DNA of 61,903 nt, filler included. It is 22 parts of 22 records of this genome, joined end to end, with 100 filler letters (N's around TTAATTAATTAA, not from the genome) between each part and the next. Parts side by side here need not be neighbours in the genome. Positions count along the whole stretch, not along the records: positions 36,066 to 40,244 come from SRR16133337_88144; 21 more parts are not named here. One strand, given 5' to 3'. The stretch's first letter is position 1, and the number at the start of each line of letters is the position of its first letter. Of the stretch, positions 5,370 through 40,355 are shown piece after piece. The notes beneath the pieces are model-generated. The model did no database searches and was not told the origin of the DNA. It worked only from the letters and a program-made list of their open reading frames with translations. The position numbers were made by a program, and so were the translations under genes.

Positions 5370-5469
5370 NNNNNNNNNNNNNNNNNNNNNNNNNNNNNNN
5401 NNNNNNNNNNNNNTTAATTAATTAANNNNNNNNNNNNNNNNNNNNNNNNNNNNNNNNNNNNNNNNNNNN
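5370..5469. other. Artificial contig linker (Ns plus TTAATTAATTAA); 21 such linkers split the window into 22 contigs
   Basis: Same 100-nt pattern at 5370, 7651, 10531, 12944, 15148, 17666, 20043, 23363, 25817, 28217, 30335, 32867, 35966, 40245, 43180, 45623, 48156, 50557, 53418, 55533 and 57789. Confidence 0.98.
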
Positions 5470-5543: not shown

Positions 5544-7604
5544 ATGAATCCATTATTACAAAAATTCAACAACCCGTATGCTACGGTTCCTTTTTCTAAA
5601 ATAAAAAAGGAGCATTACAAACCCGCCTTTAAAAAAGGTATTAAAATGGCAAAAGAGGAAATAGATCAAATTGTTGACAATCCTAAAAATCCAACATTTG
5701 AAAACACAACGGTTGCTCTAGAAAATTCGGGAGAGTTGTTGGAAAGAATTTCAAGTATTTTTTTCAACTTAAACGCTGCTGAAACGAATGATGAAATGCA
5801 ACAAATTGCCCAAGAGGTTTCTCCATGGCTTTCCGAATTCTCAAATGACATTCGATTAAATAAAGATTTGTTTCAAAAAGTGAAAGCAGTATACGATTCC
5901 AGAGCTACTTTAGGTTTGAATCCTGAAGAAACGATGCTTCTTGAAAAACAATACAAAGGTTTTTCCCGAAACGGGGCAAATTTAAACGAAAAAGATAAAA
6001 CTGCTTTGAGAGAGATGGATATAAAACTTTCCAAATTAGCTTTGCAATTTGGAGAGCATGTCTTGGCAGAAACCAAGGGCTATGAATTGCAAATCACAGA
6101 AGCATCTCAATTAATAGGATTGCCAGACGGGGCTATTGAAATGGCCAAACAAACCGCCACTCAAAAAGAAAAAGAAGGCTGGATCTTTACTTTAGACTCT
6201 CCTAGTTATATGCCTTTTATGACCTATTTAGAGGATAGAACTCTCAGAAAAGAAATAGCAATTGCTTTTGGAAAAAGAGCCTTTCAAGGAAACGAATATG
6301 ACAACCAAGAGTTGGTTTTAGAGATGGTAAAATTACGTTACCAAAGAGCTCGTTTATTAGGGTATGCAACGCATGCACACTTTATTTTGGAGGAACGCAT
6401 GGCAGAAAATCCAGAAACGGTTTTAAATTTTTCAAACGAATTGTTGCAAAAAGTAAAACCGATCGCCCAAAAAGAATTCGAGTCTTTAACTATTTTTGCC
6501 CAAAAAGAGGGAATCGATTCTTTGCAAAAATGGGATGGTTCTTATTATTCTGAAAAGTTAAAAAAGGAATTGTTTGATTTTGATGAAGAAGCTTTGAGAC
6601 CTTATTTTAAATTAGAAAATGTAGTAGAGGGTGTTTTTACCGTAGCCCATCGATTATTTGGATTGTCTTTTGAAGAGGTCTTTGATATCGACACGTATCA
6701 TAAAGAGGTAAAAACGTATAAAGTAACGGATGAACAAAATAAATACATCGCTATTTTTTATGCAGATTTTTTCCCCAGACCAGGAAAAAGAAATGGTGCT
6801 TGGATGACTTCTTATAAAAGTCAATCTATTAAAAACGGGATTCATAGCAGACCTCATATTTCGAATGTTTGTAATTTTACAAAACCAACGGCTACCCAAC
6901 CTTCTTTATTAACCTTTCAGGAGGTTAAAACTTTGTTTCATGAATTTGGACATGGATTGCATGGAATGCTTGCCAATACCACCTATGCTAGTTTATCTGG
7001 AACTAACGTACCTTGGGATTTTGTGGAATTGCCAAGTCAGATTTTTGAAAACTGGTGTTATGAAGAAGCCGTTTTAAAATTGTTTGCCAAACATTATCAA
7101 ACGGGAGAAGTGATTCCGATGGATTTGATAAAAAAAATAAAAAAAGCAGCTCATTTTTTAGAAGGGATGCAAACGTTACGTCAGTTGAGTTTTGGTTTGT
7201 TAGATATGAGCTGGCATGGAGGAGATCCAACGGAAATTTACCAGGTAAAAGATTTTGAAAGGACTTGTTTTGCAGGTACGCAATTGTATCCAGAAGTAGC
7301 AGAAAATTGTATGAGTACTTCTTTTTCTCATATTTTTCAAGGAGGTTATTCTGCAGGATATTATTCCTACAAATGGGCAGAAGTTTTGGATGCCGACGCT
7401 TTTGAGTATTTTAAAGAAGAAGGTATTTTTAATAGAGAAATCGGGGAAAAGTTTAAAAATACGATTTTATCTCAGGGAGGAACTCAAAAGCCAATGGACT
7501 TATATATACAATTTAGGGGTCAAAAGCCAAATTCGGATGCATTGTTAAAAAGGGCGAGATTGTTAGAACATACCCCAAATAATTTGGTTTTTAATACGAA
7601 ATAA
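5544..7604 (+). CDS. dcp: M3 family metallopeptidase (peptidyl-dipeptidase Dcp / oligopeptidase A-like)
   Basis: N-terminus MNPLL; KRNGAWM; zinc motif HEFGH; WDFVELPSQ; FSHIFQGGYSAGYYSYKWAEVLDAD; 686 aa. Confidence 0.92.
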   Translation: MNPLLQKFNNPYATVPFSKIKKEHYKPAFKKGIKMAKEEIDQIVDNPKNPTFENTTVALENSGELLERISSIFFNLNAAETNDEMQQIAQEVSPWLSEFSNDIRLNKDLFQKVKAVYDSRATLGLNPEETMLLEKQYKGFSRNGANLNEKDKTALREMDIKLSKLALQFGEHVLAETKGYELQITEASQLIGLPDGAIEMAKQTATQKEKEGWIFTLDSPSYMPFMTYLEDRTLRKEIAIAFGKRAFQGNEYDNQELVLEMVKLRYQRARLLGYATHAHFILEERMAENPETVLNFSNELLQKVKPIAQKEFESLTIFAQKEGIDSLQKWDGSYYSEKLKKELFDFDEEALRPYFKLENVVEGVFTVAHRLFGLSFEEVFDIDTYHKEVKTYKVTDEQNKYIAIFYADFFPRPGKRNGAWMTSYKSQSIKNGIHSRPHISNVCNFTKPTATQPSLLTFQEVKTLFHEFGHGLHGMLANTTYASLSGTNVPWDFVELPSQIFENWCYEEAVLKLFAKHYQTGEVIPMDLIKKIKKAAHFLEGMQTLRQLSFGLLDMSWHGGDPTEIYQVKDFERTCFAGTQLYPEVAENCMSTSFSHIFQGGYSAGYYSYKWAEVLDADAFEYFKEEGIFNREIGEKFKNTILSQGGTQKPMDLYIQFRGQKPNSDALLKRARLLEHTPNNLVFNTK

Positions 7605-10651: not shown

Positions 10652-11415
10652 ATGAAAACTACAACGAGCCTTCTTCTGATCGTGGTGTTTTGCTTCGGTG
10701 CTTATGGTGAGTTTCCGATCGAGTGGCGCAAAAAAGAAAATGATGTTTTTGAAATTGAATTCCAAAAGTTGACGGCAGGAAAATGTTCCCTTCGTTCAAG
10801 CCAAACGTTCAAGCCAAACCGTTTTTGCTTTTCTCTCCTTTTTTATTTGTCGCATTTTTCTACCCCGAAAAACGCAAAAAAATGTTTCTGGCTGTTTTGT
10901 TTTGTGCTTATTTTCTACTTTTTTTATTTCACCCACTTTTGTTTTGTGTTTTAGGATTGGACAACGTTCATGATAACAAATCATCAAGTCCTCCACCATC
11001 ACCTCCAAGTCCACCACCTTCTCCTCCTAGTCCTCCACCATCACCACCTAGCCCACCTCCATCACCACCTAGTCCATCACCACCTTCTCCTCCTAGTCCT
11101 TCTCCACCATCACCACCAAGTCCTAGTCCAAGTCCAAGCCCAAGCCCAAGTCCTTCTCCAAGTTCAAGTTCATCAAGTTCATCTGATAGCGGAACAGGCG
11201 ATGGTAAGTATTTGTGATCTTATTAATTTTGTGATCTTATTTGACGATTCTTTTCAAAGTTCGGCTTGTTTTCACATCGAATTGAAAAAAATGTGAAAAA
11301 TGAACTTCGTCTATTTTCTTTTTCAGACACTGGCGACGGTGGATCATACGATGATGGCGACAGAGACTCCACTGATGGCGGTGGATCACGTGGCGGTCCT
11401 AGGAATGGAAATTAA
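10652..11415 (+). CDS. Spliced eukaryotic gene for a small secreted Ser/Pro-rich (extensin/HRGP-like) protein, about 130 aa; exons 10652-10706, 10955-11203, 11327-11415
   Basis: Signal peptide MKTTTSLLLIVVFCFGAYG. GTGAGT and GTAAGT donors and pyrimidine-rich TAG/CAG acceptors, both introns phase 1 and frame-consistent. (SPPP/SPP)n then (SP)n tract, Gly/Asp-rich tail, TAA at 11413-11415. Confidence 0.8.
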
Positions 11416-13514: not shown

Positions 13515-14072
13515 CTAGTTGTCAGGAAGAAATAACGAGCCAAGAGAATTGCTCATATTATGTAAAACAAACCCTCTTTTATGAAAAAATGTATCCACTG
13601 TTTGTATTGTTCTGTAAACTACGGAGGCCATCTGCTTAACACGTCCCGCCATTGTTGGTAAAAAAAATATCAACAAAAGCACTTTTTCATTTTGAATAAT
13701 TCTACGCCGATCATTGAGAGGCGGGGTCTCTATTGTTTCCGTGCCAAGGTGGCAAACAGGTGTGGAAAAAATCATCTCTAAAAGAGCATCATGAACAACA
13801 ATTTCTGTTTGTTTGTTTTTTCCACTCAGCCAACGCACCTTTTGCGAGTCTTCAGCAAAAATTTGGTTTTGTTCAATTCGCGAAGAGTGCTTCTCTGTTG
13901 TTGCTAAATTTCTATTTTCGCCTTCCAACATTTCGAACAGGGTCTCAAGACGCTCGTTCTCTTGTGGAACAGAGCCTACTCCGCCAGCTGCTGCTGCGCC
14001 AGCTTTCGCTCCTCCACCAAAGTTGACCAAACACATAAATAAAAGGACGGTTGAAATTATTTTCCTTGCCAT
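13515..14072 (-). CDS. Probable first exon of a eukaryotic secreted protein of unknown function; 3' boundary uncertain
   Basis: ATG followed by a hydrophobic signal-like segment (KIISTVLLFMCLVNFGGG) and an Ala/Gly-rich linker; possible GT donor near 13838. Confidence 0.35.
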   Translation of the reverse strand: MARKIISTVLLFMCLVNFGGGAKAGAAAAGGVGSVPQENERLETLFEMLEGENRNLATTEKHSSRIEQNQIFAEDSQKVRWLSGKNKQTEIVVHDALLEMIFSTPVCHLGTETIETPPLNDRRRIIQNEKVLLLIFFLPTMAGRVKQMASVVYRTIQTVDTFFHKRGFVLHNMSNSLGSLFLPDN

Positions 14073-34051: not shown

Positions 34052-36157
34052 CTGAGAAACACAGAGTAACAAACAGTATCAGAAGTGTGTTTCCTTATCG
34101 AGATGCCACAAAATGCGTTTTTCCTATCCATTAAATGCAATGCAACAAGTACAGCAAGTAACATGTCCATTTTCCCCTGTTACAATAAAATTGACAGCTG
34201 ACTGCAGATTCAAAAAAAATTAAGTGTCATTACGGAAGCGAATTAAAAAAAAATCTTAACAATACATGAACCCCTTGTGCGGAAGAGAGAGGCTGTCATT
34301 TTTTGAAAAAAAGCCAAGTCCGCACCACTTCCGTCTTATCACAAGCCGGAAATTTGGCTTTAAAGAGCACAAATAGCCACAGGGGCGAGGCGTCCGATGA
34401 CTTTGTGCAAACCGTAGTTTGGGGGGAATTGCTAGGATATTGATTGATGAAATTTCGCGTGGGTGTTGCAGTGTTTATCAGCTATCCATATCCGGTGCTA
34501 TTTTTTCAAGCAGAAAAAGTGCACGCGCGAAGGCATGAAACTTATTTTTTGCCTCATGTATAGGTGAGAGTGCCTCATTTGGCTGAATTTTTTTGGCCGG
34601 TAACAACACTTATTGCATGCGAAATACCTACGATGGTAGTTCAAAAAAATGGGACATCTGCCAACAGATTTTTGAATTTCAGGCAAAACGATTGTGGTCG
34701 CAGCAACTGTGAATTGTTACAATTTTAGTCAGACCGCTTTCAGAGATCTCCCGCATTGGAATGCATTGGGGATTTGGCTCGCGCCAGTCACCAGAGAATA
34801 GATGTGGTTACCTACCTTAAATTCAGTGTTGCTGACGGGCACGAAGCTTGGTGGTTTGGGGGCCGGCGATTAAAGTTGAAAGTTACCCAAATTAAGTCTT
34901 TGTGCTTTGATTGAAAAACCAAAGCATCTTCATTTGGTTGTCATAGGTAAAGATAGAAATTTTGCAACCTAGACCCGTGCACACCAATCAAGAAAAGCTA
35001 AGTCTACAATGGTAATCTCTTACTTAATCGACAGTAATCCTAGTAGAATGTCTCCAAAATGCGTAAGCATTTTGTTTGGGCTCACTGAAAATTTTTATCC
35101 CAAAAATGGGCTTACTTTCGGATAGTAAGTCGCGTTTGCACATCGGAGTTCTCTCACGGAAAGCGAGCAAATTTCGAGTTGCTCAATTGTCCACATTTTG
35201 TAACAATACGTTTAACAGTGGCACGTGCAATCAACTTTGGAGCATAGCAAACACTGAGTAGATTGCATACCGATGTGTCATTTTTTACACCAGCAAAACG
35301 ATGCACGGAGGATGTGTGGCACGTGTCAAATTTTTGATGTAAGTGACATGCTGAAATGATTTCCGACATAAACCTGGAATGTTCTGATTTATCCTGAAAA
35401 AGAATCCAAGATGCAACACTTCGAAATTATTATTAATTATTATTTCGCCGGATAAGGCACACCAAAGAGTTTTGCACGTGTGGAAATTGAAAGTGGCACG
35501 TTTACGAATATTGATTGCACGTCCGCGGCCTGTTCAATATGCAAGTTGAAATTGGAAGCATACTCGGCAAAATGTGGCACGTGCAAGAAACGTTGGTACG
35601 TCGTGAAAACCAAGGCAAAAGATAAATTTCACGTGCCAATTATTTTGAATTTGTTTTTGTCTAGACAACAGAAACCTGCACTTTTGATAATTTTTGTTTA
35701 TTTGTTTATTGGTTAAGTTTTACTGAACAGGGCGTTGTCGAAGTCAATGCTTGTCTGACCTCACCTCAGTATGATTTTTTGTGAGGTGGAAACGGATTGT
35801 TGTGGATCGTGTGAGAACCCCGTGAGTTTTTGTCTGAACCAATTGTAATGATGTTTGCTGGGAAATGGGAAACCGTGTTTAACTCATAATAAACTTTGAA
35901 TTTAGTGAATTAATATTGGGTTGAATTTCGAGTATTAATGGTTTTAATGAATATTTCATATGATANNNNNNNNNNNNNNNNNNNNNNNNNNNNNNNNNNN
36001 NNNNNNNNNTTAATTAATTAANNNNNNNNNNNNNNNNNNNNNNNNNNNNNNNNNNNNNNNNNNNNGAAAATGCCAATAAGAAATTAAAGGATGAAGTTTT
36101 GGATTTTAAGAAACGAGTTAATTATGGAACAGGGAAACGGGATTAAAATATTACGTT

Positions 36158-36601
36158 CTACTCTCCTATTGTTTTAACCAAAATTTTATGAGGCCGTTTT
36201 GCCAACGCTACATTTGGGTAAAAACGTACTCTTTCTATTTTACATAAATTTGTGGATATTTTAATTTCCCAATTAGATAAATTTGGTATTAAACTTACTT
36301 CGCTATTTATAAAAATAAAACTATCAGACTGCGATAAATCTTTTGTTGGAATTAAATAAACAACCTTTAGTTCTTTATCTATTATTAAGACTAAAGCGAT
36401 AAATAAATTATCTTTTAATTCGCCTAAATCTTGTTTTGCAATTTTAATACTGCGTTGTGTAGTATCTAAATCCATAGATTCTACATAAATTTCGTTAGTA
36501 CCTATTAAAAAATCAACTCCTTCCCTCCCATCGGTTTTTACTAATAACTGTAAACCTATATTTTCTAATTCTGATTTTATATATTCTACCATAAAAATCA
36601 T
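36158..36601 (-). CDS. Small PD-(D/E)xK-like (DUF4365-like) protein coupled to the CBASS effector gene
   Basis: Start overlaps the effector stop (ATGA, 36598-36601). D..EGVDFLI...EIYVES..NLFIALVLI...VYLIP...W.I pattern; the expected Lys of the Q/ExK motif is Glu. Confidence 0.5.
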   Translation of the reverse strand: MIFMVEYIKSELENIGLQLLVKTDGREGVDFLIGTNEIYVESMDLDTTQRSIKIAKQDLGELKDNLFIALVLIIDKELKVVYLIPTKDLSQSDSFIFINSEVSLIPNLSNWEIKISTNLCKIERVRFYPNVALAKRPHKILVKTIGE

Positions 36602-37752
36602 TTAGAATGTAGGTCTCCATTTAATTCAATAGACTTTTGAAATGATTTAGTTCTAAAGTCATGGTCGTAAATTAACCAAGGCATATCTGCCTTTGGCATT
36701 CTTGCACGACCAAATTCTACTGAGCAAGAAATTGGCATTACTGGAAATATATGCAAAGGTGTTTTATTTCCGTGTTTATGTTTTATTTCAGCCATCAAAA
36801 GACGAACCGCTTCTCTAAACATCGATAGTTGAGTTTTCGATTTCATAAAATCATTATTAGGTTTTGTAATTGTGATTTCCCAAATATTAACATCATCACC
36901 AAGAACACTAAATACTCTATCTTTCGAAACGTAGTCACTCAGAGAAATAACTAAAGCAGGGATATTACTAAAATCATTAGGACGATTTATTATGAGCTCA
37001 AAATTTTTGGAGAAATTTCTCCATTTCCAATTAGCTGGTTCTCTATGTAATTGAAATGTTTCTACTTTAATTTTATCTGTAAATAATGCTCCTAATTGTA
37101 TTAATAAAGGTTGTGGAGCGAGACAGAACAAAGAAAATGATTTGCACTCATCTTGTTCTATTATTGGAATTATTTTTTGGTTATAAGCTCTAAGTAAGTT
37201 TGATGATTCTGCAAGCCAATATTCATTGCTACTATCTTTTAAATTTGATGTCATTGAAAGAATTTGCGGTCTTTCAGTTGCGGGATAACTATCTGGAAAC
37301 ATAGCTTCAACACAACTTGTATTAGTAATTAAAGATTTTTCGGAACCAATATTAGCTCCATACATTATCACGTGAGATTTTTTTTCAGGTTGAATTCCAG
37401 TAACGATTTCAATTCTCTGTTCGTGCTCATTTTTCCAAGTAATTAATAATTCTGCAGAATATCTTACTCCTTTCTCATCTTGGTCAATTTTTTTATGACA
37501 TCCGTGACACATTAACATAAGGTTGCTTATGTCATTTAAACCTGTTGTATTTAATTTAAATGGTCCCCAACCTCTTGGTCCTTTTTCAGAAAATGAATAG
37601 ATATGTGCTTTTTGTGCTAGATTTACAGTTTCATTGGTTATTGCTGACTTATATAGTAAGTTGTTACAACCACTAAATTGACATCTTCCTCCTGCTCTTG
37701 CCCATAGTTCTCTTTCTGTTATATTTTTTATATGTCGTGTTACTTCTTTCAC
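36598..37752 (-). CDS. cap5: CBASS effector, HNH endonuclease plus SAVED domain (Cap5-type)
   Basis: LWARAGGRCQFSGC, AHIYSFSEKGPR and NLMLMCHGCHKKID (HNH); FCLAPQPLLIQLG, FQLHREP..W.W and LHIFPVMPISCSVEFGRARMPKAD (SAVED). Confidence 0.9.
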   Translation of the reverse strand: MKEVTRHIKNITERELWARAGGRCQFSGCNNLLYKSAITNETVNLAQKAHIYSFSEKGPRGWGPFKLNTTGLNDISNLMLMCHGCHKKIDQDEKGVRYSAELLITWKNEHEQRIEIVTGIQPEKKSHVIMYGANIGSEKSLITNTSCVEAMFPDSYPATERPQILSMTSNLKDSSNEYWLAESSNLLRAYNQKIIPIIEQDECKSFSLFCLAPQPLLIQLGALFTDKIKVETFQLHREPANWKWRNFSKNFELIINRPNDFSNIPALVISLSDYVSKDRVFSVLGDDVNIWEITITKPNNDFMKSKTQLSMFREAVRLLMAEIKHKHGNKTPLHIFPVMPISCSVEFGRARMPKADMPWLIYDHDFRTKSFQKSIELNGDLHSK

Positions 37753-37785
37753 AGTAATTAAGTATAATTATTTAATAACTTATAA

Positions 37786-38259
37786 TTAGTCATTTTGTTT
37801 CTTTTCTTCGAAATTACCGTATTCATCGTGACCTCCTCCTAACCATTTTCCTGATATTAGCCATAATTCATAAAACTCTAACCATTCACTTGCCCACGGA
37901 ATAATTGTAGAAGATATAAGTTTCTCTTTTGTCCATTGTCTTTTTTTCCAAGAGTATAAGCATAATTTTTGTTCTGTATGAGAATAAACGTGGGGTAATT
38001 TTTTTCTATTTTTTGCAACTTCAAGTTTTTCATTGACAACAAAAACAGATACTCCTGAAAATTTATCAAAACATATTTTTATATCGTAAGATTTGCTAAT
38101 TATTGTCGGTTGTAACTTGATTATAATTTCGAAATAGTTTCCTTTCTGTTTTATTATCTGTAAATCGGGGAACATTTCTTTAATTTTATCAAGCTGCTTA
38201 GAAACAGAAAACCCTTTCTTTTTGGCTTGTTTAGAACTTTTTATATAAGAACTCCCCAT
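37786..38259 (-). CDS. Stand-alone prokaryotic E2 (ubiquitin-conjugating-like) protein of type II (short) CBASS
   Basis: 157 aa; LPHVY....KLCLY (His plus catalytic Cys) and TIIPWASEWL.FYELWL..G.W.GGGH; lies between the CD-NTase and the effector. Confidence 0.78.
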   Translation of the reverse strand: MGSSYIKSSKQAKKKGFSVSKQLDKIKEMFPDLQIIKQKGNYFEIIIKLQPTIISKSYDIKICFDKFSGVSVFVVNEKLEVAKNRKKLPHVYSHTEQKLCLYSWKKRQWTKEKLISSTIIPWASEWLEFYELWLISGKWLGGGHDEYGNFEEKKQND

Positions 38260-38260
38260 T

Positions 38261-39505
38261 TTATATCAATCCTTCGAAATCGTGTTTTTTAATTTTTGAC
38301 CCAACAGATGTAGTCCCCAATAATCCACTTCCTAATTCCATATTACGTTTTCCCGTTTCAGTCAAGATTCGATTTCTTTCACCATAATTAACAAAGGCAT
38401 TTTCAGTTAAAGATTCACCAAATTGTGAGGACATTGATTTTTGAAGATTATTTAACCCAATACCTTCACTATTAATTATAGATGCTATATCTTCTTCTAG
38501 TTTATCTAACCATTGATAAAAGTATTTACGCTTTAAATCTTCTTCAATCCATTTATCAGCAAAATTTTCAACTTCATTAACAGGGTTTTCTACCCACTTC
38601 TCATATTTCATAGTTTGATTATTCCATTTTTCTTTAATTTCACTCCTCATTTGTCCTACTATATTAATTAAGCCATCCAAAATGTTATCTTCTCTATTAT
38701 AAGTTCTTGCGGCTAATGTTGTAATAATTATAGAAATCGGTTTATGATCCAAATTAAATTCACTTTCTTCTGAAAACAAAATATCTCTATGTCTCTTAAG
38801 AATTTGAACAATTCTTTGTAATGGCAATTTTTCTTTTTCAAAATCTCTAATTGGTTGAACTGCTTCATTTAAGGAGAACATTCGTTTAGAACTAACAATA
38901 GCTCTACTAAAAAACCATTTTGCATAACCAAAAGGATTACTTTTCAACCATAAAAGATGGTTAGTAACTGTAGTATACCCTAGTTCTTCCTTATCTGTAA
39001 TCCTAATTGCCAACTCATCTGTATTTTGCAACTCTGAATTTGAAAATGCTTTTTCAAAAAGAAGATTATAGTTTGAATCAACGACACAAGGCAAAATATC
39101 CATATGATAATTAGAATCTTCTGCATAGATAAGAGTCCAACACCTTCTACCTTCTGGCTTCTTAATCATTTTCTCATAGGTTTTATTATCTTTAATTTGA
39201 TCCCCTACTATTTGCTTTAAATCAAATTGAGTCCAATCGACATTTTTGTTAGTTAGTTGACAAACCAAATCTACATCCAATTTACTTCCTTCAATTACTG
39301 GTTTTACCATCGTACCAAGCATAAAAGAACCTTGTGGTATGATTTCCAGTTTATATGGAATCAATTGAGAGTTTTCCTTAGTTAATTGCTCAGCAACAGC
39401 TCGGTAACTTTTTACGGCAGATTCATACTGAGTTTTGGTAATATCTAATTCACCTCCTAATAATTCTAATATATTGTTTAAAGTTTCTTTATGTCTTGTA
39501 TTCAT
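38261..39505 (-). CDS. cGAS/DncV-like nucleotidyltransferase (CD-NTase, CdnG-like)
   Basis: LDIT..QY..A..SY, PQGSFMLGT..KP....LDVDLVC, RRCWTL.Y...YHMDILP, SNP.GYA.WF, LQR.VQILKRHRD, KPISIIITTLAA, NPVN..ENFADKW; C-terminus HDFEGLI. Confidence 0.93.
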   Translation of the reverse strand: MNTRHKETLNNILELLGGELDITKTQYESAVKSYRAVAEQLTKENSQLIPYKLEIIPQGSFMLGTMVKPVIEGSKLDVDLVCQLTNKNVDWTQFDLKQIVGDQIKDNKTYEKMIKKPEGRRCWTLIYAEDSNYHMDILPCVVDSNYNLLFEKAFSNSELQNTDELAIRITDKEELGYTTVTNHLLWLKSNPFGYAKWFFSRAIVSSKRMFSLNEAVQPIRDFEKEKLPLQRIVQILKRHRDILFSEESEFNLDHKPISIIITTLAARTYNREDNILDGLINIVGQMRSEIKEKWNNQTMKYEKWVENPVNEVENFADKWIEEDLKRKYFYQWLDKLEEDIASIINSEGIGLNNLQKSMSSQFGESLTENAFVNYGERNRILTETGKRNMELGSGLLGTTSVGSKIKKHDFEGLI

Positions 39506-39515
39506 ATCATATATT

Positions 39516-40115
39516 TTATAATGAAATTATATTTTCAACAACTCCTTGAATTCTAAAATCATTAGTCAGAATTATTGGTTGATGTTTTGGGTTAGAGGAA
39601 TGAGGCTTTAAAACAATAGTATCTCCATTATTTATAAATTCTTTCACAGTAGCATCATCATCTACTAATGCCAATACTAAATCTCCACTTTCAGCAACTT
39701 GTTGTTGTTTAATTAACAGTAAATCTCCACTATTAATTCCCTTTTTGTTCATTGAATCACCAAAAACCCTTAAAAGAAAATAATTAACAGATTTTCGAAT
39801 TAACTTGGTAGATACAGGTATTTGAGCTTCAATATTTTCTTCCGCAAAAATCGGGAGCCCACAAGAAACAGAACCAACTAATGGAATTTCTACAGTATCA
39901 CTAATGTTCGATTCCTTAGCGACAAATTGATTAGAATCTAATAATTCTCTTGCTTCAACTTGCAATAGATTTGCTATTTCATAAAGAATTTCAAGACTAG
40001 GTTGCCTTCGATTTTGCACATAAGAATTTACCATATTATAACTCTTGTTGAGCTTTTCAGCTAACCAAGTCTGCTTTACGCCTTTTAGTTCCAATATTTC
40101 TTTAATACGATTCAT
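39516..40115 (-). CDS. XRE-family HTH fused to an S24 (LexA/UmuD/CI-like) autopeptidase
   Basis: MNRIKE.LE.KG.KQTWLAEKL.KSYNMVNSYVQNRRQPSLE HTH; IPLVGSVSCG.P cleavage loop; LRVFGDSM (Ser) and ATVK (Lys) dyad; ends 10 nt before the CD-NTase start. Confidence 0.9.
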   Translation of the reverse strand: MNRIKEILELKGVKQTWLAEKLNKSYNMVNSYVQNRRQPSLEILYEIANLLQVEARELLDSNQFVAKESNISDTVEIPLVGSVSCGLPIFAEENIEAQIPVSTKLIRKSVNYFLLRVFGDSMNKKGINSGDLLLIKQQQVAESGDLVLALVDDDATVKEFINNGDTIVLKPHSSNPKHQPIILTNDFRIQGVVENIISL

Positions 40116-40139
40116 AAACAAACAATTGATTTTCAGTTA

Positions 40140-40198
40140 CAAATATAAATTTAACATTTTAATTATCTCATAATATGATATAATTATTGTTAACAATA
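40140..40198 (-). promoter_or_regulatory. Promoter and candidate operator of the CBASS operon
   Basis: TATATTTG -7 element (40140-40147, minus). 25-bp near-perfect palindrome AATTATCTCATAATATGATATAATT (40161-40185). Perfect 14-bp palindrome TATTGTTAACAATA (40185-40198). Confidence 0.6.
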
Positions 40199-40355
40199 TA
40201 AACTACTTATAAACAAAAATTAATTTAGAAATTGAATTTCGTATNNNNNNNNNNNNNNNNNNNNNNNNNNNNNNNNNNNNNNNNNNNNTTAATTAATTAA
40301 NNNNNNNNNNNNNNNNNNNNNNNNNNNNNNNNNNNNNNNNNNNNAAGAGGGGCAT

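Follow-up and report, generated by a model that had tools for sequence, protein, structure and literature searches.

A predicted self-cleaving HTH-S24 repressor heads a short type II CBASS operon and other defence operons of Bacteroidota

The stretch of marine bacterial DNA analysed here (hereafter the window, 61.9 kb) is made of 22 short contigs, mostly of 2-4 kb, joined at 21 places by N44-TTAATTAATTAA-N44 linkers, and on one of these contigs an antiphage system that signals through cyclic oligonucleotides (CBASS) is preceded, on the same strand, by a gene coding for a helix-turn-helix (HTH) repressor with a LexA-type S24 domain. Since the contigs have been joined artificially, gene order across the linkers is uninformative; the neighbouring PhoH and DnaN genes lie on separate contigs and convey no synteny. 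The contig in question, which extends 129 nucleotides (nt) 5' of the regulator gene and 92 nt 3' of gene 5, is organised as follows:

36066-40244: single 4.2-kb contig with the CBASS operon, between the linkers 35966-36065 and 40245-40344 (a further linker lies, for example, at 5370-5469)
40140-40216, minus strand: promoter/operator region, recognised from the layout that it shares with relatives
40216-40206 and 40196-40186, minus strand: two TTGTT(T/A)A boxes
40181-40165, minus strand: candidate operator, the 17-nt imperfect palindrome ATATCA-TATTA-TGAGAT
40147-40140, minus strand: -7 box TATATTTG of the Bacteroidota type, 25 nt ahead of the ATG
39516-40121 (longest frame) or 39516-40115 (from the likely ATG), minus strand: gene 1, XRE-HTH/S24 repressor of 199 amino acids (aa), with the XRE-HTH at residues 4-60 and the LexA-type S24 domain at residues 80-195 (from Pfam, TIGR00498 and LexA structures)
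38261-39505, minus strand: gene 2, nucleotidyltransferase of the cGAS/DncV type (CD-NTase), CdnG-like, 414 aa, starting 10 nt past the regulator stop codon
37786-38259, minus strand: gene 3, stand-alone CBASS E2 protein, 157 aa
36598-37752, minus strand: gene 4, Cap5-type HNH-SAVED effector, 384 aa
36158-36601, minus strand: gene 5 (g5), protein with an Hjc-like PD-(D/E)xK fold, 147 aa, overlapping the Cap5 gene by 4 nt
36143-36247, minus strand: conserved 3' DNA element of non-coding type, found by blastn, with a core of about 53 nt at 36143-36195

The open reading frame (ORF) calls returned five minus-strand genes on this contig, spaced by 10, 1, 33 and -4 nt in operon order, exactly the layout that a first reading of the window, made from the sequence only, had described. 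The real start of the regulator is most likely the ATG at 40115, the start used by its homologues. The cargo was identified gene by gene: the CD-NTase matches Pfam SMODS (E 4.5e-11) and a DncV-like NTase family, the PADLOC oligonucleotide cyclase model (E 1.2e-121) and, in the PDB, the cGAMP synthase 9woo_A (E 4.5e-51) and SmCdnG 8hsb_A (E 1e-32); the E2 protein matches PADLOC (E 1.8e-46) and 8hsb_B (E 3.9e-11), with the cysteine of the LCL motif aligned; and the effector combines SAVED (E 5.5e-44) with HNH_2 in Pfam and matches the PADLOC endonuclease effector (E 2.5e-145) and 7rwk_A (E 8.4e-65). ThiF and JAB domains, which would mark an E1/JAB partner, are absent from the five genes of the contig. 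Because these three genes match solved CdnG, E2 and Cap5 structures, the cargo is a CdnG-E2-Cap5 type II (short) CBASS, with the CD-NTase, the stand-alone E2 and the SAVED-nuclease effector of an E2-only system all in place; the Serratia CdnG-E2 pair (8hsb) and the Cap5 structures thereby support the class that the sequence-only reading had proposed. Family searches assigned genes 1 to 4 and left gene 5 unmatched.

The first gene is the one that concerns us most. In Pfam it matches HTH_3 (E 1.4e-9) and Peptidase_S24 (E 1e-29), with HTH_26 also found at its N-terminus. Residues 86-197 align with the C-terminal domains of solved LexA (6a2q, 6a2r, 6a2s), and searched against structures the S24 domain hits 6a2q (E 4.6e-18), 1jhh (E 2.2e-16) and, more distantly, the lambda repressor (E 4.9e-4). 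In this alignment G86 is the first residue after the cleavage point of LexA, K158 falls on the lysine of the VK motif and S121 on the serine of the GDSM motif of 6a2q and 6a2r (chain 6a2s has GDAM there). C85-G86, S121 and K158 are invariant among 17 homologues (alignment A1). The Cys-Gly bond and Ser/Lys dyad that the sequence-only reading had picked out in an HTH-S24 protein were therefore corroborated by Pfam, by invariance and by the LexA structures. The LexA winged-helix domain (PF01726) was searched for and is not present, the N-terminus being HTH_3/HTH_26, and the PADLOC capH model gives a weak match to the HTH (E 3.5e-5). The regulator family is about 200 aa long, scores about 100 bits with Pfam S24 and carries an S24 domain of the LexA/UmuD kind; the window regulator is the only S24 gene found in the 62-kb stretch. 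Its named full-length homologues come from Flavobacteriaceae and other Bacteroidota, apart from one metagenome-assembled genome labelled Chlorobiota and one without a taxon, so that the family shows the Bacteroidota-restricted HTH_3 + S24 architecture by which non-canonical LexA proteins are recognised.

The DNA ahead of the gene has a layout that recurs among its relatives: two TTGTT(A/T)A boxes, a palindrome and, about 20 nt further on, a TAnnTTTG box. It stands ahead of the gene in each of the 16 full-length genome relatives and in 5 close metagenome relatives, and a palindrome of the ATCTCA-N5-TGAGAT type precedes 17 of the 17 XRE-type members examined. We take TAnnTTTG to be the -7 element of Bacteroidota, and the -33/-7 promoter consensus is likewise presumed here. 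On the operon strand of the contig a second operator was not found, and the sole other -7-like box lies within the CD-NTase gene, at 39273. A scan with sigma-70 promoter and terminator models gave 24 and 1 sites, no excess over shuffles, with a consensus that is unsuited to Bacteroidota. The motif of the Flavobacteriaceae SOS regulon is GGA-N5-TCC according to PMC8565304. This motif and the other published SOS motif, CTAA-N5-TTAG, were tried as the operator and rejected, being absent from the 129 nt present here and from the 220 nt upstream of L001-L016 (L and G numbers are our handles for loci and genomes).

If the repressor were a component of the defence operon, it should accompany defence genes elsewhere, and it does. 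In 401 evenly sampled Flavobacteriaceae genomes, counted at E<=1e-40, the family is present in 14, and in 8 of these it lies directly upstream of a defence operon that signals by cyclic nucleotides, which is a CBASS in 7 cases, with 4 or more architectures among them, and Pycsar (a pyrimidine cyclase system that confers resistance to phages) in 1. The cargo consists of DUF2188, NUDIX, CD-NTase and E2 in G003 and G337; of CD-NTase, E2 and HNH-SAVED, 78-81% identical to those of the window, in G057; of a 353-aa gene, a STING-domain effector and g5 in G144; of patatin, CD-NTase and E2 in G354; of patatin, a CD-NTase-E2 fusion and g5 in G002; of CD-NTase, an E1/JAB protein, DUF6602 and g5 in G069; and of Pycsar in G315. 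The six others have a repair pair, radical-SAM/DUF4130 (G088, G023, G317), or other or no partners (G201, G340, G347). Of the 401 genomes, 44 contain SMODS, and in 6 of the 44 it adjoins the regulator family, whereas by our own arithmetic chance alone should put both into only about 1.5 genomes. Among the matches listed, 16 species-representative genome loci are full-length; 5 of them have CBASS behind the regulator (at L012 a type III HORMA/TRIP13 CBASS after a 10-nt gap), and the remainder comprises 6 with repair genes, 1 with recQ upstream, 2 with convergent unrelated genes, 1 contig end and 1 unknown gene. The 17 loci of full-length metagenome relatives have defence-type genes behind the regulator in 12 cases, 8 of them CBASS or Pycsar: CBASS or parts of it at L115, L118, L119, L124 and L130, Pycsar at L116, L122 and L123, TIR genes at L117 and L127, a ubiquitin-like E1 set at L120 and a GMT-wHTH/DUF5131/Abi_alpha set at L131, leaving 2 loci with convergent genes, 2 contig ends and 1 unknown gene. 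For most members the defence cargo is on the same strand, within 0-230 nt, and of unrelated types.

The HTH-S24 gene is also kept beside CD-NTases homologous to that of the window, on which the sequence-only reading had staked itself. At L115 regulator and CD-NTase are each 96% identical to those of the window; at L006 the CBASS is 78-82% and the regulator 62% identical; and at L110 the gene in front of a CBASS 78-81% identical codes for an S24 repressor whose DNA-binding domain is the LexA winged helix. The proposal of an HTH-S24 repressor within a CBASS operon is thus supported, and the arrangement turns out to be wider than claimed, extending to defence operons of several kinds. We also observed that many S24 regulators are separated from their cargo by a small gene, coding either for DUF2188 (73-83 aa; L011:7646-7867, L107:7646-7867, L143:3475-3717, L152:8380-8631, L191:2995-3225) or for a conserved basic peptide of about 43 aa (L006:7643-7783, L110:7391-7529), the latter lying within an apparent gap of 140 nt. 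These interposed genes could be co-factors of the switch.

S24 domains cleave themselves on RecA filaments formed on single-stranded DNA (ssDNA). We consider it likely, from sequence and gene neighbourhood, that the window protein is a local autorepressor which RecA-ssDNA inactivates, raising CBASS expression. A repressor dimer on ATATCA-N5-TGAGAT, just upstream of the -7 box, would hold its own gene and the four that follow at a low level; phage replication or DNA damage would generate RecA-ssDNA filaments; the filaments would stimulate cleavage of the Cys85-Gly86 bond through Ser121 and Lys158; the DNA-binding and dimerisation domains would part, repression would be lost and the CBASS proteins would rise; and the CD-NTase, E2 and Cap5 would then act as in the characterised systems. 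Binding of the palindrome, repression, co-transcription and RecA dependence are what we infer from this arrangement. Since the same kind of repressor heads many defence operons, DNA damage probably switches these defences on as well.

Several observations weigh against this reading. Because the contig ends 129 nt upstream, further genes of the unit may lie 5' of the regulator, and the interposed DUF2188 or 43-aa ORF of several relatives is missing from the window operon. In G001-G004, four CBASS-linked relatives, matches to the operator with at most one mismatch number 2-10 per strand against 0-17 for a reversed-pattern control. The perfect palindrome occurs in these genomes once each, always at the regulator's own promoter, and since the looser matches show no excess this fits a local autoregulator rather than a regulon; the counts argue for a local role, and weaker sites may exist elsewhere. 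Most of the other contrary observations speak for a different identity, namely that the HTH-S24 protein is the housekeeping SOS LexA of the host and that CBASS landed alongside it, or in an insertion hotspot, without regulatory meaning. The regulator passes the TIGR00498 lexA cut-off (115.3 bits against 110.95, over residues 72-198 only), and it is because this NCBI cut-off is narrowly passed that source annotations name its close homologues 'transcriptional repressor LexA'. The nearest named relatives, 71-81% identical (L001-L005, G088, G023, G317), stand away from defence genes and back to back with radical-SAM/DUF4130 genes, an operon of the type listed among SOS genes in PMC8565304, and are followed by imuB-dnaE2 at L004; at L016 the regulator is followed by recA. 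In G004 a longer HTH-S24 protein was searched for and not detected, the S24 proteins found in this genome being a UmuD-like one and the regulator linked to CBASS. Finally, in a tree of S24 domains (95 rows and 128 columns, with many unresolved forks; 6 identical copies and the partial L135 were omitted), the window groups with L115, L118 and L119 (CBASS), L116 (Pycsar) and L117 (TIR) at 82% in the Shimodaira-Hasegawa-like approximate likelihood-ratio test, and this defence sub-clade is nested in a clade of 14 that has 99% support and includes 8 repair-linked members besides.

We nevertheless hold the housekeeping identity to be improbable. A family carried by 14 of 401 genomes is a poor candidate for a housekeeping regulator, and genomes related to, and distinct from, that of the source organism were examined for a second LexA and for a regulon. 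Of the four CBASS-linked genomes checked for a second HTH-S24 protein, G001, G002 and G003 have one: a longer HTH_3-S24 protein (254-298 aa, 33-50 bits with S24), which is found in G005 too. In G003 its gene adjoins radical-SAM/DUF4130 and has three of the published GGA-N5-TCC boxes upstream. From the restricted distribution, the second HTH-S24 protein in G001-G003 and the SOS boxes in G003 we conclude that the regulator belongs to a separate accessory family, and the window regulator is most probably not the master SOS LexA. The single perfect operator per genome, the unrelated defence cargoes closely behind most members and the excess of SMODS adjacency over chance all speak against a chance landing beside a housekeeping gene. 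On the S24 tree the CBASS label changes 14 times, at least 5 of them forced by well-supported branches, and since it changes so repeatedly the histories of cargo and regulator must differ.

A further alternative keeps the switch and replaces its trigger: in place of the RecA filament, the repressor might be inactivated by a protein of the phage, by a separate protease, as some CI-like or LexA-like proteins are, or by the second messenger of CBASS. A RecA-independent LexA-like protein has a precedent in IrvR of Streptococcus mutans (PMC7101444), and the small DUF2188 and 43-aa ORFs near many relatives are possible co-factors of such a trigger. However, the S24 domain is nearest to the C-terminal domains of bona fide LexA (E ~1e-17 to 1e-18) and keeps both cleavage site and dyad, and S24 domains 60-63% identical to it adjoin recA or imuB-dnaE2 in several loci, for which reasons we give this alternative little credence and prefer inactivation by RecA-ssDNA.

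In another explanation the protein is the CI- or ImmR-like switch of a mobile island or recombination slot and serves to control that element, the defence cassettes being swappable cargo whose expression is incidental. Regulators 82-96% identical head differing cargo (CBASS, Pycsar or TIR), the architecture is that of phage CI repressors, as the lambda match recalls, and a conserved 3' element, together with g5, bounds the cassettes. The element was found by blastn at 81-94% identity in 27 places of 20 loci, invariably in operon orientation, and ends CBASS, Pycsar, TIR and Wadjet-like operons; in 4 loci it stands on both sides of the cassette. Copies lie, for example, at L010:6118-6170 and 10775-10856, L110:10436-10488 and 13701-13752, L117:3352-3400 and 7467-7576, and L197:11580. 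Strict copies number one per genome in the 5 genomes searched, and neither Rfam nor ARAGORN matched an RNA or tRNA on the contig or around the element in related loci. Candidate roles for the element are those of a recombination site, of a terminator-like signal and of a small RNA. Two further loci touch on tRNA genes: at L130 the regulator is preceded, at a distance of some 150 nt, by a tRNA-Leu gene (646-733), and L115, of all contigs the closest to that of the window, begins (positions 1-120) with a truncated tRNA-like 3' end and a hairpin. This hints that some regulator-defence units occupy tRNA-side island sites.

Yet the annotated flanks of the 16 genome loci (~3.3 kb upstream and 5.4 kb downstream) and comparable flanks of 12 further loci showed neither an integrase or recombinase nor a structural gene of a phage, the sole transposase seen being at L144, and the regulator is tightly and directly coupled to the first cargo gene. 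A mobile switch is, moreover, compatible with DNA-damage control of the cargo. We regard incidental expression as unlikely, if less so than the two preceding alternatives, and retain the damage-responsive autorepressor. In connection with the slot, a set of multiubiquitin, DUF6791-ThiF (E1-like) and DUF6527 genes was also observed beside or behind S24 regulators (L010:4068-5907, L120:8838-10696), which appears to be another ubiquitin-like defence cassette in the same place.

Gene 5 of the window, read at first as PD-(D/E)xK-like, proved to be so at the level of fold, judged from a homologue, and did not join any known family: it has no match in Pfam, PADLOC or NCBIfam, and the Pfam nuclease families gave no match with 25 g5 members. 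The label DUF4365, which the family bears in some sources, was rejected, having no match in the 25 members and a profile probability of 0.5% against the DUF4365 N-terminus of L132. ESM Atlas gave weak leads to DpnI (0.90) and PDDEXK_16 (0.89). AlphaFold models the window protein at a mean pLDDT (predicted local distance difference test) of 49.7, from a shallow alignment, and P0140, a homologue with 71% identity across 78% of the query, at 90.2 from a deeper one. The P0140 model has the restriction-endonuclease-like alpha-beta-beta-beta-alpha-beta core, and its top fold match is the archaeal Hjc 2wcw_A (Z 10.6, root-mean-square deviation 2.7 over 106 residues), followed by D212, I-Ssp6803I, NhoI, PvuII and DpnI. 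In alignment A2, E27, K53 and K56 are invariant and E11, D30, D44 and D46 nearly so, as candidate residues of a catalytic site. The homologues are about 135 aa long, and the window copy departs from all of them after residue 118 (residues 119-147); its last codons, the odd tail, are coded by the 3' element, and the protein may be impaired by this replaced C-terminus. As a fixed partner of the regulator g5 was discarded: it occurs in 25 of the 401 genomes and adjoins the S24 family in only 3. It is not specific to CBASS either, trailing Pycsar, TIR and Wadjet cassettes too (a Wadjet-like operon has a terminal g5 at L197:11107-11517), it pairs with a 68-73-aa HTH gene at L195 (3849-4262 and 15359-15769) and L196, and in 4 of the 25 positive Flavobacteriaceae genomes it occurs twice, 11-27 kb apart.

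The two halves of the regulator each lead to a wider set of relatives. On the side of the cleavage domain, six sampled genomes have proteins whose S24 domain is 60-63% identical to that of the window and whose N-terminus is the winged helix PF01726, and five of them are placed at the head of CBASS or Pycsar. In metagenomes, 63 partial-match loci (several rows being identical copies) match mostly in the S24 domain, and an ORF could be called in 58 of them; PF01726 is present in 53, and of the other 5, three (L135, L166 and L173) are without the N-terminal part. Behind these 58 genes we found defence-type genes in 14 cases (CBASS 4, TIR/Thoeris 6, restriction-modification 2, a NACHT-like gene 1, a 900-aa DUF4365 protein 1), recA or imuB-dnaE2 in 5, DUF2188 as the first gene in 5, GIY-YIG in 4, a transposase in 1, unknown ORFs in 9 and no same-strand neighbour or a contig end in 20; the 5 repair loci are a further point in favour of a housekeeping LexA, already judged improbable above. 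As an observation in its own right, PF01726 + S24 proteins thus exist in Flavobacteriaceae (L109-L114, L132-L194), where in the sampled genomes most head defence and not repair genes; according to PMC8565304, LexA homologues had not been identified in this phylum.

On the side of the DNA-binding domain, 64 further loci among the matches listed (L017-L080) align mainly with the regulator HTH (its first 59-116 residues) at 49-81% identity. Their ORFs are of 60-79 aa, and the 19 inspected are stand-alone XRE proteins (63-71 aa), 67-81% identical over the HTH domain. A same-strand gene lies right behind the HTH-only ORF in 58 of the 64 loci, and when Pfam was run on 77 of the 110 ORFs lying downstream, which represent 45 loci, restriction-modification, BREX (bacteriophage exclusion), helicase-nuclease or ATPase families were found behind about 39 of the 45. 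We observe that these HTH-only genes, widespread in Bacteroidota, front type I, ISP and IIG restriction-modification, BREX, DUF6079 and further defence operons, in the manner of controller proteins (for example L017:7001-7213, L042:7001-7192 and L056:7001-7207). Of the 64 HTH-only genes, 25 have the palindrome TCTCA-N5-TGAGA, with at most one mismatch, in the 120 nt upstream, and none of 63 control stretches taken from inside the downstream genes has it. Since these HTH homologues head defence operons and part of them have a related palindrome, the window regulator gives the impression of an HTH from the head of a defence operon to which a LexA-type cleavage domain has been added.

Taken together, these findings lead us to a broader proposal, which we advance tentatively and rate at somewhat less than an even chance: that S24 repressors, with an XRE HTH or a winged helix, are a widespread, undescribed one-protein switch that reads RecA, heads CBASS, Pycsar, Thoeris/TIR, restriction-modification and NLR-like (nucleotide-binding leucine-rich repeat-like) operons of Bacteroidota and forms the 5' edge of a cassette slot, whose ~53-nt 3' element, often together with the Hjc-like nuclease, may drive cargo exchange.

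CBASS-type abortive infection kills its host, which gives weight to how such a system is kept silent and when it is primed. All three regulator classes described so far sense DNA damage by routes other than the classical RecA/LexA chemistry; if our reading is true, the expression of CBASS, Pycsar, Thoeris-like and restriction systems would be tied directly to the RecA filament, the oldest damage sensor of the cell. Annotation of these proteins as 'LexA' obscures both their role in defence and their distinctness from the published SOS regulator of Bacteroidota, a different protein of the same genomes.

In our search of the literature, which reached few subscription journals and no supplements, no S24- or LexA-like CBASS regulator was found, the papers on CapW, CapH/CapP and CapK/CapS included. 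These three all respond to DNA damage (PMC9122588, PMC11662680, bioRxiv 10.1101/2022.04.27.489752, PMC13373217), and the window system shares features with each of them and with LexA itself: (i) CapH, like the window protein, is an XRE HTH repressor that heads CBASS and other immune operons, and it is inactivated by proteolysis after DNA damage (bioRxiv 10.1101/2022.04.27.489752), as we propose for the window protein. In contrast, the predicted protease of the window protein is a Ser-Lys S24 domain in the same chain, and its expected trigger is the RecA filament, whereas CapP binds ssDNA; a gene for the CapP metallopeptidase is not among the five of the contig, whose upstream side ends at 129 nt. 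(ii) CapW/BrxR and CapK+CapS, the latter a kinase with its repressor, also head diverse defence operons, which they release from repression after DNA damage (PMC9122588, PMC13373217). Their folds are unrelated to that of the window protein and so is their chemistry, WYL proteins binding ssDNA and CapK+CapS acting by phosphorylation, and Pfam detected no WYL or kinase gene on the contig. (iii) The Serratia marcescens CdnG-E2 CBASS (8hsb, 8yjy, 9kkb; Cap5 7rwk, 8fm1) has the same CD-NTase, stand-alone E2 and HNH-SAVED effector, but similarity to the Serratia pair is modest, at E 1e-32 and mainly in the C-terminal half for CdnG and at E 3.9e-11 for the E2. (iv) The Bacteroidetes non-canonical LexA described by Sanchez-Osuna et al. 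(NAR 2021, PMC8565304) resembles the window protein in joining HTH_3 to S24 with conserved cleavage residues, in its palindromic dyad-N5-dyad operators and in the autoregulation that we propose for the window protein. The two can probably be set apart by length and S24 score (~200 aa and ~100 bits against the longer, lower-scoring proteins described above), by operator (ATCTCA-N5-TGAGAT against GGA-N5-TCC or CTAA-N5-TTAG) and by their coexistence in 3 of the 4 CBASS-linked genomes checked. (v) With canonical LexA and UmuD the window protein shares an S24 domain that aligns to LexA and a Cys-Gly cleavage bond as in UmuD (PMC8565304), whereas its DNA-binding domain is an XRE HTH_3 and not a winged helix. 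On our reading, the S24 repressor would add a fourth class to the defence regulators CapW, CapH/CapP and CapK/CapS.

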